Shown here piece by piece: positions 49,871-52,541 of a stretch of 64,000 nt of DNA; position 1 is the stretch's first letter, and each line of letters begins with the position of its first letter. Source of the stretch: an uncultured bacterium. GTDB taxonomy: Bacteria > Chlamydiota > Chlamydiia > Chlamydiales > JAAKFR01. Below the pieces are notes generated by a model. It ran no database searches. It was not told the origin of the DNA and was given only the letters and a program-made list of their open reading frames with translations. Both the position numbers and the translations under genes were made by a program. Where the stretch lies: positions 9,833-73,832 of the forward strand of contig CAZPPS010000009.1 in the NCBI GenBank assembly GCA_964588495.1. The letters run 5' to 3'.

Positions 49871-50359
49871 ATGTTTAAATTCATTTTATTTTTTCTAAGC
49901 AGCTCCCTTTTTTTCTCGGTTGCGCAGGGTGAAGAAGTCAGTATTCAATCTCCTCCTAAAGGTTGGGAGTGCATTACAGATCAAGCGCAACTGCCGCAAA
50001 AAATCAAACTGATCTACATCGGCAAACCAACAGCTGCAAATCCTTTCAACCCCTCGATGAATGTCGCTTGCGAAGAGACACCTTTAAATCTTGCAGACTA
50101 TGTGAAATCGGCAAAAGCCTATCATGAAAGCCAACCGGAGACCAAATGCGCCCTGCTTGGCAAAATTAATACGGCAGCCGGTCCTGCCGAAATTTTGCAA
50201 CTTGACCGCACCATGCAATGGGGAATTGTCCGCTTCATCCAGGCTGTCATGATTCGCAATGGCCATGCCTATGTTGTGACCACAACGTGTATCAAAGAAG
50301 AGTTCAGCGCACTGTCTCCGCAGCTTTTTAAAGCGATTCAGTCTTTTACGATTAGATAA
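49871..50359 (+). CDS. secreted hypothetical protein
   Basis: Signal peptide MFKFILFFLSSSLFFSVAQG. 162 aa. No family recognised with confidence. Confidence 0.6.
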   Translation: MFKFILFFLSSSLFFSVAQGEEVSIQSPPKGWECITDQAQLPQKIKLIYIGKPTAANPFNPSMNVACEETPLNLADYVKSAKAYHESQPETKCALLGKINTAAGPAEILQLDRTMQWGIVRFIQAVMIRNGHAYVVTTTCIKEEFSALSPQLFKAIQSFTIR

Positions 50360-50374
50360 CTTAAATCGAAATCT

Positions 50375-50427
50375 ACGTGCCCGTGCCCGATCCGAAATTT
50401 CGGACAGGGGCACGCTCACGGGCACGT
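50375..50427. repeat. GTGCCC-hexamer hairpin (imperfect copy)
   Basis: ACGTGCCCGTGCCCGATCCGAAA / TTTCGGACAGGGGCACGCTCACGGGCACGT, 16 nt after the stop at 50359. Confidence 0.7.
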
Positions 50428-50499
50428 AAAGAAATTCAAAAATTTGCACCTTGCAAAAAAAATAATTAATTTGTTATGTCTGTGCAAAAGGAGATCGTT

Positions 50500-50808
50500 A
50501 TGAAGAAATTGATTTCGACATTGTGTGTAGTTTTGATGATTTTTGCTGCAAAAGCGCCAAGCCTTTACGGTTCTTGTGGTGCCCCTTGTGGAGAACCATG
50601 CCAAACAACATATTGTGATGCACCTTGTGCAGCACCTTGCGCACCTTATGCACCTTATGCACCCTGTGACGCTCCATGCGCCCCATGTGCACCTGCTGCT
50701 GGAACTTGCTGTGGAACTTCGTGGATACCTTTAATTGTTGCTGCTGGTGCAATTGCAGTTGGCGTAGCTTTTGTTGTATCACACAACCGTGGTCACCACG
50801 GACACTAA
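50500..50808 (+). CDS. small Cys/Pro/Ala-rich protein with signal peptide, C-terminal TM anchor and His-rich tail (paralog A)
   Basis: SD AAGGAG before ATG 50500. Signal MKKLISTLCVVLMIFAAKA. About 11 Cys occur in (A/P)PC repeats. The TM anchor is IPLIVAAGAIAVGVAFVV and the tail is SHNRGHHGH. Confidence 0.75.
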   Translation: MKKLISTLCVVLMIFAAKAPSLYGSCGAPCGEPCQTTYCDAPCAAPCAPYAPYAPCDAPCAPCAPAAGTCCGTSWIPLIVAAGAIAVGVAFVVSHNRGHHGH

Positions 50809-50900
50809 GAACTGAAACGTAACAAATACGTTAACCAGTTATCGAAAATATTATCAGAGATGCTGTCTAAAGGCAGCATTTCTGACATTATAGTTTAACA

Positions 50901-50958
50901 AAAGTTTTTGTACTTTTGGCCGCTTCAAAGTCCCGCGGTTAAAAGTACAAAAACCTTT
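50901..50958. promoter_or_regulatory. 23-bp imperfect inverted repeat upstream of Cys-rich paralog B
   Basis: AAAGTTTTTGTACTTTTGGCCGC (50901-50923) pairs with GCGGTTAAAAGTACAAAAACCTTT (50935-50958). It ends 25 nt before ATG 50984. Confidence 0.45.
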
Positions 50959-50983
50959 GTCAAGCTGTGCGAGGAGACTTTGA

Positions 50984-51280
50984 ATGAAAAAAACGGTTGC
51001 TGTATTTTGTATTATCTTAGCTGTAATGTTTGGTTTTCCTGGATCTCAAGCGACAGCTGCTGCCCCTTGCGGTCCCAATACTTGCCAGGTTGATTCTTCT
51101 ATTCCATATTGCGAGCCTTGCGCTCCTTATCCTGCTCCCTGCGGACCACCTTGTGCTCCCGCTTGCGGCGCTAATTGCGGCGTTTCATTATGTGCCGTTG
51201 GAGTTGCTGTTGCAGCTGTGATCGCAGCTGGTGCAATTATTTTGCTTGCCGGCAAAACCGAACATGCGCATTCTCATTAG
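50984..51280 (+). CDS. small Cys/Pro/Ala-rich anchored protein (paralog B)
   Basis: SD GAGGAG. It has a signal peptide, a region APCGPNTCQ...YCEPCAPYPAPCGPPCAPACGANCGVSL, a TM anchor and the tail KTEHAHSH. Confidence 0.75.
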   Translation: MKKTVAVFCIILAVMFGFPGSQATAAAPCGPNTCQVDSSIPYCEPCAPYPAPCGPPCAPACGANCGVSLCAVGVAVAAVIAAGAIILLAGKTEHAHSH

Positions 51281-51312
51281 TCTGATTTAAGAAAAATTAT
51301 TCGGAGTAGTGG

Positions 51313-51783
51313 ATGAAACGGCTGACTGCAATTGTTGTACTTTTGACTTTTTGGATTTCCCCTTTACGGGCTGCCTCAGATACCTTTGTTGATTATCAAA
51401 ACTACAATCACGGCTACTGCCCTGAATGTGGAAGTTTTCCTTGCAGATGTGGCGAAAGAGCTGCCGGTAATAATCTTGCCCCTGAAGAGGCACCTGTTCC
51501 ACCACCCCCTCCTGCAGGCCCTGGTTTTTCCTACGGTGGTCCACCAGCCCCTGCTCCCAACGGCCGTGTTCCTCCACCACCACCAGGTGTCGCTGCAAAA
51601 ACGCCACCTCCTCCTGCTCCTCCAACGCCTGCTTGCAAAAAACCAGAGCCCTGTGCCCCAGCTGCAGTGTGTGCCACAAATTGCGGCGTAAGACTAATCT
51701 GGGTAGGGCTTGGAATTGTGGTTCTGGCAACAGGAGCTGCCATCATCATTAGCTCCAACAACGGCGCCGCTCCCTTCCATTAA
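51313..51783 (+). CDS. Cys- and Pro-rich anchored protein (paralog C)
   Basis: It has a signal peptide, CPECGSFPCRCG, polyproline tracts (PVPPPPPAGPG, PPPPPG, PPPPAPPTP), the shared CATNCGVRL motif, a TM anchor and ends in FH. Confidence 0.7.
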   Translation: MKRLTAIVVLLTFWISPLRAASDTFVDYQNYNHGYCPECGSFPCRCGERAAGNNLAPEEAPVPPPPPAGPGFSYGGPPAPAPNGRVPPPPPGVAAKTPPPPAPPTPACKKPEPCAPAAVCATNCGVRLIWVGLGIVVLATGAAIIISSNNGAAPFH

Positions 51784-51818
51784 CAGTTGCTCATTAAATG
51801 TTACGAGCCCATGCACAC

Positions 51819-51915
51819 AAACTCTCCTGGATTGCGGCCTTTCTTCGCCGCTCTTCAATTGCCAAGAAGACTTTATGCCTATTGCATAGCGGCGAAGGAT
51901 CGCCGCCCTTCAGAG
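51819..51915. repeat. double-hairpin palindromic element (family 3), copy 2
   Basis: AAACTCTCCTGGATTGCGGCCTTTCTTCGCCGC...GCGGCGAAGGATCGCCGCCC aligns to the reverse complement of copy 1, including the central CAATTGCCAA(A/G)(C/A)AG(T/A)CTTTA. Confidence 0.8.
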
Positions 51916-52010
51916 GCAGTTCCAAAACTCATTTGCCCGGCAAAATCGCTCTTTTGAAGCCATTTGCATCCATTTTCCTCGGCCAGCTCAACGAAGGCCG
52001 CCCTCGTCAA

Positions 52011-52541
52011 ATGGAACGTGGCAGCTTTACTGCCTCTTGCAACTGGACGCAAAATAATCAATTTTTCCGGGCAAAGCAGTTTTGCAACTACCTCTCTAGG
52101 AAGGCTGTCTGTATTATAACGCTGCTTCTCCTTGTGTTTAGCCTTACAGGATGCAGAGGAAAAGGTTGGTTTTATAGCGATGTCAAATCAGATTGCGCAC
52201 GGTTTAACTCGGCTCTTTTAAGCCATTGCTCCCCTGAGGCATTTAATGGAATTGAACTGCAGCTTTTAAGAGGTGAATTTGGGATACTGGCTTTTCTCAA
52301 TATTAGTTCGGGATCTCTGAACTCTCCCACTGCCGCTTTAGAAATTGAGGGGATACGCTATTTGTACACCGCGCATGTGATGCAGGGAGGGCAAAGGGTG
52401 CTTCTGCCTCCAGAAGCCGCTGATTTTATCATCACTTCTTTACTCAACGGTCTAAACGTAAAAATCTGTTTAAACGGCTATATGAGCGAGTTTTTCCCTG
52501 AAAACTTTGCACGCAAATACAAGTGCTTTAGCCGGCAATAA
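52011..52541 (+). CDS. putative lipoprotein, unknown family (start uncertain: 52011 or 51798)
   Basis: Hydrophobic stretch with lipobox LVFSLTGC. The track start at 51798 would translate through repeat family 3, and ATG 52011 avoids it. Confidence 0.5.
   Translation: MERGSFTASCNWTQNNQFFRAKQFCNYLSRKAVCIITLLLLVFSLTGCRGKGWFYSDVKSDCARFNSALLSHCSPEAFNGIELQLLRGEFGILAFLNISSGSLNSPTAALEIEGIRYLYTAHVMQGGQRVLLPPEAADFIITSLLNGLNVKICLNGYMSEFFPENFARKYKCFSRQ

Follow-up and report, generated by a model that had tools for sequence, protein, structure and literature searches.

A lineage-specific family of small Cys-rich proteins with a predicted C-terminal membrane anchor, encoded at a fixed chromosomal position in uncultured chlamydiae

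RESULTS

Three adjacent genes encode Cys-rich proteins of a shared layout

We analyzed a 64,000-nucleotide (nt) stretch of DNA from an uncultured bacterium of the order Chlamydiales (contig CAZPPS010000009.1, positions 9,833 to 73,832), hereafter referred to as the window. Its subject here is a group of three adjacent open reading frames (ORFs), which the original prediction, made from the letters alone, described as encoding secreted, Cys-rich proteins anchored by a C-terminal transmembrane (TM) helix. All three are present at the positions given there, with the following features:

50488–50494, plus strand: Shine-Dalgarno sequence AAGGAGA of ORF1, read from the sequence
50500–50808, plus strand: ORF1, 102 amino acids (aa), a short family member of a divergent CG..W subtype (family hidden Markov model, E = 5.7e-22)
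50722–50778, plus strand: predicted TM helix of ORF1, approximately W75 to V93
50971–50976, plus strand: Shine-Dalgarno sequence GAGGAG of ORF2, read from the sequence
50984–51280, plus strand: ORF2, 98 aa, C-terminal module like that of subtype B, without the N-terminal knuckle (family model, E = 1.3e-20)
51182–51253, plus strand: predicted TM helix of ORF2, approximately V67 to G90
51303–51306, plus strand: Shine-Dalgarno sequence GGAG of ORF3, read from the sequence
51313–51783, plus strand: ORF3, 156 aa, subtype A (family model, E = 5.1e-35)
51379–51450, plus strand: N-terminal knuckle of ORF3, DTFVDYQNYNHGYCPECGSFPCRC, residues 23 to 46, beginning three residues past the predicted cleavage site
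51649–51696, plus strand: juxtamembrane motif of ORF3, PCAPAAVCATNCGVRL, residues 113 to 128
51694–51756, plus strand: predicted TM helix of ORF3, residues 128 to 148, rich in Ala, Gly, Ile, and Val (Kyte-Doolittle mean of 2.58)

A mechanical ORF list places the start of ORF1 at ATG 50476. ATG 50500, from which the product begins with MKK, is the better start since AAGGAGA is located 6 nt upstream, in agreement with the original choice. The N-terminal hydrophobic segment of each protein ends in an AxA-type signal peptidase I site, and the predicted signal peptides comprise residues 1 to 19 in ORF1 (AKA↓PS), 1 to 23 in ORF2 (SQA↓TA), and 1 to 20 in ORF3 (LRA↓AS). Cleavage sites and the lipobox were judged by sequence rule, not by LipoP or SignalP; since these cleavage regions contain no lipobox, the possibility that the products are lipoproteins was rejected. 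The signal peptide of ORF1 is followed by (A/D)PC repeats, the motif CCGTSW, the TM helix, and the tail SHNRGHHGH. In ORF2, the juxtamembrane motif PCAPACGANCGVSL precedes the helix and the tail KTEHAHSH. ORF3 contains the N-terminal knuckle, a polyproline spacer, the juxtamembrane motif, the helix, and the tail SSNNGAAPFH. The conserved motifs (CGANCGVSL, CATNCGVRL, and CCGTSW in ORF1) and the His-containing tails read as originally quoted.

The three proteins contain 12, 10, and 8 Cys residues in total; a recount outside the signal peptides returned the 11, 9, and 8 reported earlier. Cys content is 10 to 12% in ORF1 and ORF2 and 5% in ORF3, compared to 1.22% in the 36 ORFs of at least 200 aa found in the window. 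Each protein has a single hydrophobic segment toward its C terminus, where the Kyte-Doolittle mean over 19 residues is 2.5 to 2.75. When ORF3 was modeled by AlphaFold2 with 13 homologues, the only confident helices were the signal peptide and residues 128 to 148, with a predicted local distance difference test score (pLDDT) of ~85 over residues 131 to 150; the region between both helices was a low-confidence coil, and the mean pLDDT was 62.6. The proteins are paralogous (ORF2 versus ORF3, E = 5e-7; ORF1 versus ORF2, E = 0.002). A composition profile of the region revealed no island, and the raised GC content of ORF3 is due to its proline codons.

The ORFs are genes under purifying selection

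Alternative frames are likewise open across the three-ORF region, and a wrong choice of frame had been named in the original prediction as grounds for refuting it. To estimate selection, we used L003 and L004, two related genomes with four family members each. In the four orthologue pairs, the synonymous rate (dS) was 0.98 to 1.62 and the nonsynonymous rate (dN) was 0.03 to 0.14, giving dN/dS ratios of 0.03 to 0.14 in the proposed frame. The ratio for ORF3 and its L011 orthologue was 0.11. Peptide motifs are kept among relatives that are only 30 to 60% identical, Shine-Dalgarno sites precede all three ORFs, and synteny is conserved (see below). Against these observations, the open alternative frames leave a negligible probability that the ORFs are not genes, i.e., that they are chance open frames in low-complexity GC-rich DNA or are read in the wrong frame; a noncoding artifact is excluded by dN/dS, motif conservation, and synteny. 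The three-protein layout is also far beyond chance since it recurs with conserved motifs in ~120 nonredundant relatives. ORF1, ORF2, and ORF3 are thus real genes whose frame is correct and whose relatives are under strong purifying selection.

The proteins belong to an undescribed family

The original prediction called for a search of relatives for the motif combined with a C-terminal TM helix. A family profile built from 13 sequences was scored exhaustively against 1.84 billion representatives and matched 70 clusters at E ≤ 1e-3, of which 34 reached E ≤ 1e-10 and 10 reached E ≤ 1e-30; together with the locus searches described below, ~120 nonredundant members were available. All 70 clusters are low-complexity proteins of 80 to 199 aa. 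The 30 clusters that were looked up are all singletons of metagenome or metagenome-assembled genome (MAG) origin, either unnamed or called "hypothetical protein," and the sole organism label among them is "Chlamydiales bacterium." A third homologue search added two labeled proteins, one from a Chlamydiales MAG and one from a "Verrucomicrobia" MAG (locus L014). The latter is probably mislabeled since L014 has the full chlamydial gene order.

Sensitivity depended on the query. ORF3 retrieved ten homologues (E = 1e-33 to 1e-12), while a word-indexed search with ORF2 returned only ORF2 itself and ORF1, and ORF3 or profile queries were needed to find relatives. ORF2 had no exact match in the contig index. 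No Pfam or NCBIfam model matched the three window proteins at E ≤ 1, and a PDB sequence search with the family profile was empty. A Pfam scan of 75 aligned members yielded nothing significant; Chlam_OMP3 (OmcA), OmcB, CYSTM, metallothionein, and YTV were not among the families listed. The claim that the proteins do not resemble OmcA or OmcB is thus borne out. Weak matches to Inovirus_capsid stem from the Ala-rich helix and the locus is part of the core chromosome, and a phage coat protein was therefore rejected. From their sequences, the three genes belong to an undescribed, lineage-specific family of small, predicted bitopic envelope proteins of uncultured chlamydiae, the only organisms from which the family is known so far.

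Conserved modules flank a variable spacer

The anatomy of the family was derived from ~120 nonredundant members. From the N terminus to the C terminus, they contain a Sec-type signal peptide with a signal peptidase I site, an optional N-terminal knuckle, a low-complexity spacer, a juxtamembrane motif, a TM helix, and a short tail. ORF1, ORF2, and ORF3 all fit the defining plan of signal peptide, motif, Ala/Gly-rich TM helix, and Ser/Gly/Asn tail with His.

The knuckle is present in 74 members, ORF3 among them, a few residues past the signal peptide, and is absent from 48 of 122. Its consensus is (S/D)(N/D)TF(I/L/V)-D-Y-Q-N-Y-N-H-G-Y-C-P-x-C-x-C-x-P-C-x-C (peptide sequence ASDTFVDYQNYNHGYCPECGSFPCRCG). 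It is near-invariant, with fourteen positions identical in at least 64 of the 74 members, and contains five Cys and one His.

The spacer, in contrast, ranges from 5 to 242 aa (median of 54) and is free in composition. It is polyproline in ORF3, P0005, and P0006; acidic in P0009, P0010, and P0016; and made of (A/D)PC or CPPP repeats in ORF1, P0004, P0023, and P0068. In two members, the spacer has grown into Tyr/Pro/Gln/Gly tandem repeats with units GQPYPxQPYNG or NGNYPP:

L005 5720–6649, minus strand: L005_5720, 309 aa
L006 6015–6713, minus strand: L006_6015, 232 aa

The original prediction had pointed to near-tandem DNA repeats in ORF1 that could allow length variation. Short arrays are indeed present there, in modest form only; Tandem Repeats Finder reported four rows, three of them overlapping across 50618–50694:

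50618–50694: period of 39, 2.0 copies, 78% matches
50620–50643: period of 12, 2.0 copies
50632–50663: period of 9, 3.6 copies
50694–50719: period of 12, 2.1 copies

At the level of the family, length variation is real, as can be seen from the range of spacer lengths and the repeat expansions.

The juxtamembrane consensus is (D)PC(D)PCAP(V)CGTxCG(I/V/L)S. In 116 C-terminal modules, its columns are occupied by P in 108, A in 109, C in 97, G in 97, C in 104, and G in 109. The 20 residues preceding the TM helix contain 20% Cys, 18% Pro, 8% Asp/Glu, and 2% Lys/Arg. The helix consists almost entirely of Ala, Gly, Ile, Val, and Leu (mean Kyte-Doolittle value of 2.64), with small residues spaced i, i+4. 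The tail has a median length of 10 aa and is composed of 29% Ser, 15% His, 14% Gly, and 11% Asn. Of 122 members, 114 have one or more His residues in the tail, with His at a single aligned position in 98 of 104, and just 21 of the 122 carry Lys or Arg there. Several paralogues (L003_5594, L004_5479, and L015_5165) have lost all Cys and still retain PSAPVxGT, a TM helix, and a tail with His, which indicates that the membrane-proximal module is conserved for more than its thiols. The knuckle of ORF3, the near-universal tail His, the Cys-less paralogues, and the fixed chromosomal position considered below are features beyond those originally noted.

Subtypes are orthologous across genomes

A neighbor-joining tree built on the C-terminal modules revealed subtypes that are orthologous across genomes. 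Subtype A (signature ...CATNCGISLW.IGL...SSNNG), which includes ORF3, occurs once per genome in the 10 loci carrying it and invariably closes the array. In 8 of these 10 loci, it abuts or slightly overlaps the preceding gene or begins no more than 32 nt past its stop codon; the gap in the window is 32 nt. Such tight spacing argues for co-transcription and matched dosage with the preceding gene. Subtype B has the signature DPCAPVCGTECGISICAIGV...SGNGSS.H. Short subtypes without the knuckle include ORF1, which groups with L012_5705, L002_6496, and L018_2627, and ORF2, which groups with L007_3466 and L020_5588.

In one related locus (L016 642–1869), three tandem family genes are nearly identical, as are their upstream regions. 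Judging from this identity, the triplication appears to be a very recent expansion of the array.

The array occupies a fixed chromosomal position

Related loci were collected in two ways. The DUF2764 gene of the adjacent V-ATPase operon was used as a handle to retrieve ten loci from Chlamydiales MAGs; ten further loci came from contig look-ups and a metagenome scan with the 13-sequence alignment, for ~280 kb of related loci in all. Neighbor proteins encoded in the window are 63 to 68% identical to those of Chlamydiales MAGs and their genes are in identical order, in line with the chlamydial setting assumed in the original prediction. One to four family members were found at one and the same position in each of the 17 loci whose sequence extends past the conserved upstream gene, and likewise in the window. 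From the V-ATPase operon, which lies on the opposite strand and ends in atpE, the common order runs through a secreted protein gene, one to four family members, and a lipoprotein gene to a Zn-ribbon protein gene (opposite strand), HSP20, transaldolase, and, at a greater distance, rpoC. In a few loci, the lipoprotein and HSP20 genes alone had no BLAST match. The immediate neighbors in the window are as follows:

49871–50359, plus strand: upstream neighbor, a secreted protein of 162 aa that contains 4 Cys, adjacent to atpE in all related loci
52011–52541, plus strand: downstream neighbor, a lipoprotein with lipobox LTGC; homologues of ~125 to 175 aa
52528–52908, minus strand: Zn-ribbon-like protein, 126 aa, two CxxC pairs, weak Zn-ribbon matches

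Homologues of the upstream neighbor are 35 to 59% identical and 155 to 236 aa long across loci, and the window protein has no Pfam match and no PDB sequence match. The L011 homologue is 236 aa long and has a basic stretch, PKRKK, after the signal peptide. In Chlamydia trachomatis, the corresponding order is, as we presume, atpE (CT310), CT311, CT312, tal (CT313), and rpoC (CT314). If this holds, the array has been inserted into a block whose synteny extends across the phylum, and the upstream neighbor sits at the CT311-equivalent position, a likeness of position that follows from the presumed order. CT311, a 236-aa protein whose secretion is Sec dependent, reportedly passes into the host cell and reaches its nucleus (PMC3662721).

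The listed 247-aa ORF at 51798–52541 is over-extended: The lipobox Cys is its residue 119, and the lipoprotein gene probably starts at ATG 52011. The spurious 5′ part of this ORF contains an imperfect 43-nt inverted repeat (51827–51913). The Zn-ribbon-like protein is the best-conserved neighbor of the array (61 to 88% identity across loci), and its gene shares 14 nt with the 3′ end of the lipoprotein gene.

Two genes farther from the array were also recorded. An ATPase gene with AAA_14 and DUF4143 domains (39452–40657, minus strand) lies between housekeeping genes and the V-ATPase operon of the window. A relative encodes an unrelated 149-aa secreted protein (L001 9120–9569, minus strand) that is 14% Cys, is rich in Tyr, Lys, and Glu, and carries motifs such as EYYTVKCC; it has no Pfam match and is a candidate for another uncharacterized Cys-rich envelope protein.

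Hairpins and promoter-like elements border the genes

The regions around ORF1 contain the following elements:

50374–50428, plus strand: GC-rich hairpin just after the end of the upstream gene, belonging to a repeated palindrome family
50452–50481, plus strand: putative sigma-66-type promoter of ORF1, TTGCAA, an 18-nt spacer with the TG of an extended −10 element, and TATGTC
50848–50968, plus strand: hairpins between ORF1 and ORF2, with a 14-bp stem at 50854–50885 and a near-perfect stem of ~33 bp at 50889–50968

A consensus promoter scan called nothing before ORF1 or ORF2, the candidate at 50452–50481 included. In at least 7 loci, the sequence TTG(C/T)TA(T/C), often ATTTGCTAT, precedes the start codon of non-coupled family genes by 20 to 60 nt, against a background rate of 0.27 per kb; the loci listed with it before the first array genes are L003, L004, L005, L006, L011, L016, L018, and L020, and the window copy is at 50471–50477. 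By its sequence and placement, it may be an extended −10 promoter element.

The hairpin at 50374–50428 is probably a terminator that separates the upstream gene from ORF1. It contains two copies of the palindrome CGTGCCCGTGCCCG(A), which occurs 13 times in the window at no more than 3 mismatches (0.12 expected), mostly as inverted pairs, at 692, 6143/6171, 8916/8922, 29749/29818, 32715/32760/32778, 39433, and 50374/50412. These copies look like a family of REP-like or terminator hairpins.

The spacer between ORF1 and ORF2 (50809–50990) folds strongly, with a minimum free energy of −70 kcal/mol (z = −8.9). Its ~33-bp hairpin finishes just ahead of the ORF2 ribosome-binding site, and the element is unique within the window. 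Rfam returned only sub-threshold, miRNA-like matches for the intergenic hairpins, i.e., matches to generic hairpins. From the predicted fold, the element may combine a terminator with a regulatory or mobile palindrome. The hairpins after the upstream gene and after ORF1 suggest that the upstream gene, ORF1, and ORF2-ORF3 are transcribed as three separate units.

DISCUSSION

A possible inner membrane anchor of the cross-linked envelope

Chlamydiae largely replace the rigid peptidoglycan wall with a disulfide–cross-linked protein network. To our knowledge, its Cys-rich parts described so far (OmcA, OmcB, and porins) are all associated with the outer membrane and differ widely between chlamydial families. 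Our leading interpretation, held tentatively and short of an even chance, is that the new family is an inner membrane–anchored contributor to such an envelope. Signal peptidase I would cleave the signal peptide and the C-terminal helix would stop transfer, leaving a bitopic inner membrane protein with its Cys-rich part in the periplasm and its His tail in the cytoplasm. Small-residue TM helices would let co-expressed paralogues form hetero-oligomers. The periplasmic Cys residues would form intra- and intermolecular disulfides and so tie the inner membrane to the cross-linked envelope of infectious forms, with the membrane helix standing in for the lipid anchor of OmcA.

Several lines of evidence point in this direction. 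An inner membrane topology is predicted because a cleaved Sec signal peptide is combined with a single α-helical stop-transfer segment; for the same reason, the "surface layer" suggested in the original prediction is probably wrong. The acidic residues before the helix fit the periplasmic side. Small-residue helices, distinct subtypes, tight gene spacing, and Cys-less paralogues point to hetero-oligomers. Infectious chlamydial forms are rigidified by disulfide-linked Cys-rich envelope proteins that are oxidized late in the developmental cycle, and the chlamydial periplasm has an active DsbA/DsbB oxidizing pair that forms these cross-links (PMC6752827). A segment with 20% Cys and 18% Pro in an oxidizing compartment would be a natural participant in disulfide cross-linking.

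Other observations weigh against the proposed anchor role. The topology is not secure since the scarcity of Lys and Arg in the tails (21 of 122) is atypical for the cytoplasmic flank of a stop-transfer segment. The near-invariant Cys spacing of the knuckle and its conserved His would be as compatible with metal binding as with disulfides. Spacers of 5 to 242 aa speak against a periplasmic bridge of fixed length, some paralogues are devoid of Cys, and AlphaFold2 shows no folded ectodomain.

Alternative functions

The foremost alternative, which we consider unlikely, is that the proteins are membrane-anchored metal binders or sensors. Reduced Cys in the knuckle and in the juxtamembrane CxxCxxxCxxxC would serve as periplasmic ligands of Zn(II) or Cu(I), and the cytoplasmic His tail would relay metal or a signal, making a buffering or an uptake/sensing device. 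The invariant knuckle spacing H...CxxCxCxxCxC with its conserved His, the tail His at one nearly fixed position, CxC and CxxC patterns of the kind typical of metallothioneins, and small-residue helices that could pack as an oligomer are all as such a device would have them. However, Pfam gave no metallothionein or metal-binding family for the three window proteins and listed none for the 75 members, none of the loci has a metal transporter or regulator linked to the array, the knuckle is lacking in 48 of 122 members and every Cys in some, and the DsbA/DsbB pair is active in the compartment where the thiols would have to stay reduced (PMC6752827).

The tripartite layout of conserved motif, TM helix, and short tail recalls C-terminal sorting signals of the LPXTG, PEP-CTERM, MYXO-CTERM, or GlyGly-CTERM type. 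In this scenario, PCAPVCGTxCG would be the cleavage site of a dedicated intramembrane protease, and the Cys-rich peptide, perhaps first lipidated on a Cys, would then travel to the outer membrane or the cell surface. The PxAPVxGT core is retained in the Cys-less paralogues, as a recognition site would be, and Gly/Ala-rich helices are typical substrates of intramembrane proteases. We nevertheless regard such a signal as improbable. No NCBIfam sorting-signal model matched at E ≤ 1, the tail lacks the typical basic cluster, and no sortase-like gene, exosortase, or rhombosortase is adjacent to the array. The module was never found on other cargo among the 70 library matches or among the other ORFs of the window and the 20 loci. 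A generic sorting tag was rejected on these grounds.

We rate a more speculative model as quite improbable: The array would encode a hetero-oligomeric single-pass complex in which periplasmic Cys/His knuckles sense or carry redox equivalents or metal ions and packed small-residue helices and cytoplasmic His tails transmit the state across the inner membrane. This would be a minimal switch coupling envelope oxidation to the developmental cycle, similar in design to CTR1 with its C-terminal HCH tail.

Export toward the host is more doubtful still. The proteins would reside in the inclusion membrane or a host membrane, and their Pro-rich spacers would engage host SH3-, WW-, or EVH1-type domains in an ActA-like manner. 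Polyproline and Pro/Tyr-rich spacers (ORF3, L005_5720, and L006_6015), a weak match of ORF3 to BimA driven by the proline-rich region, and a neighbor at the presumed position of the secreted CT311 (PMC3662721) speak for it. Yet the signal peptide is a classical cleavable Sec peptide instead of a type III signal, the single hydrophobic segment is not a bilobed Inc domain of 40 to 60 aa, and what is conserved is the knuckle and the membrane module, while spacers vary from polyproline to acidic, PC-repeat, and Pro/Tyr/Gln/Gly-rich. The remaining probability falls to functions not considered here.

A conserved Cys-rich family anchored by a helix, probably in the inner membrane, would supply a layer missing from the known chlamydial envelope: either a connection of the inner membrane to the cross-linked network or a redox or metal element in the periplasm. 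It would also mean that environmental chlamydiae assembled their envelopes from parts specific to their lineages. At 20 residues, the near-invariant knuckle lends itself to biochemistry with a synthetic peptide, and the family is a clean marker for an uncultured chlamydial clade.

Comparison with known systems

Among Cys-rich chlamydial envelope proteins, the family is best filed, on present sequence comparisons, as a new architecture without detectable homology. Its closest counterpart in general character is OmcA, likewise small, secreted, chlamydial, membrane-tethered, ~10 to 15% Cys, and a plausible part of a disulfide envelope. The two differ in every defining feature that was examined. 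There is no detectable sequence similarity between them (Chlam_OMP3 did not match the three window proteins at E ≤ 1). The family has a signal peptidase I site, with no [LVI][ASTVI][GAS]C lipobox ending the hydrophobic region, and is tethered by a C-terminal TM helix, predicted to lie in the inner membrane, whereas OmcA is an outer membrane protein without a TM helix. OmcA also lacks the N-terminal knuckle, variable spacer, and His tail. The family genes are not adjacent to omcB; their neighbors are the V-ATPase operon and the genes of the 162-aa secreted protein, the lipoprotein, and the Zn-ribbon protein. An OmcA homologue was thus rejected on family model, lipobox, the TM-free mature protein, and omcB adjacency.

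Inc proteins are distinguished by a type III signal and a bilobed domain of 40 to 60 hydrophobic residues; the Sec signal peptide and the single hydrophobic segment of about 22 to 30 residues in the family (28 to 34 residues above the Kyte-Doolittle threshold and 21 in the AlphaFold2 helix of ORF3) led us to reject this assignment. C-terminal sorting signals share the succession of motif, hydrophobic helix, and short tail at the extreme C terminus. In the family, however, the tail is rich in Ser, Gly, Asn, and His rather than basic, the module occurs on one kind of small protein, and no sortase is linked.

The eukaryotic tail-anchored CYSTM proteins and CYYR1 are also small, with a Pro/Tyr-rich low-complexity region and a Cys cluster near or within a single TM helix. 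CYSTM proteins carry their Cys residues within the helix and lack a signal peptide, whereas those of the family precede the helix and a signal peptide is present. Pfam gave no CYSTM match for the three window proteins and listed none for the 75 members, and CYYR1 matched one member only, at E = 0.026. The resemblance is one of design, not of descent. TonB and TolA are similar in design only, with a single TM anchor, an extended Pro-rich spacer, and a small terminal head that could reach the outer layers. The family has its anchor at the C terminus, i.e., with opposite polarity, no TonB or TolA domain, and a spacer whose length is not conserved.

The Cys-rich YTV-domain proteins of planctomycetes, too, are envelope proteins within the Planctomycetes-Verrucomicrobia-Chlamydiae (PVC) superphylum and were found in cell wall preparations; their genes have been reported only in Planctomycetales (PMC8567305). 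The chlamydial proteins are far smaller, are predicted to be TM-anchored, and gave no YTV match in Pfam scans. By these sequence features, the planctomycetal wall proteins appear as a parallel to the family within the PVC superphylum and not as its relatives.

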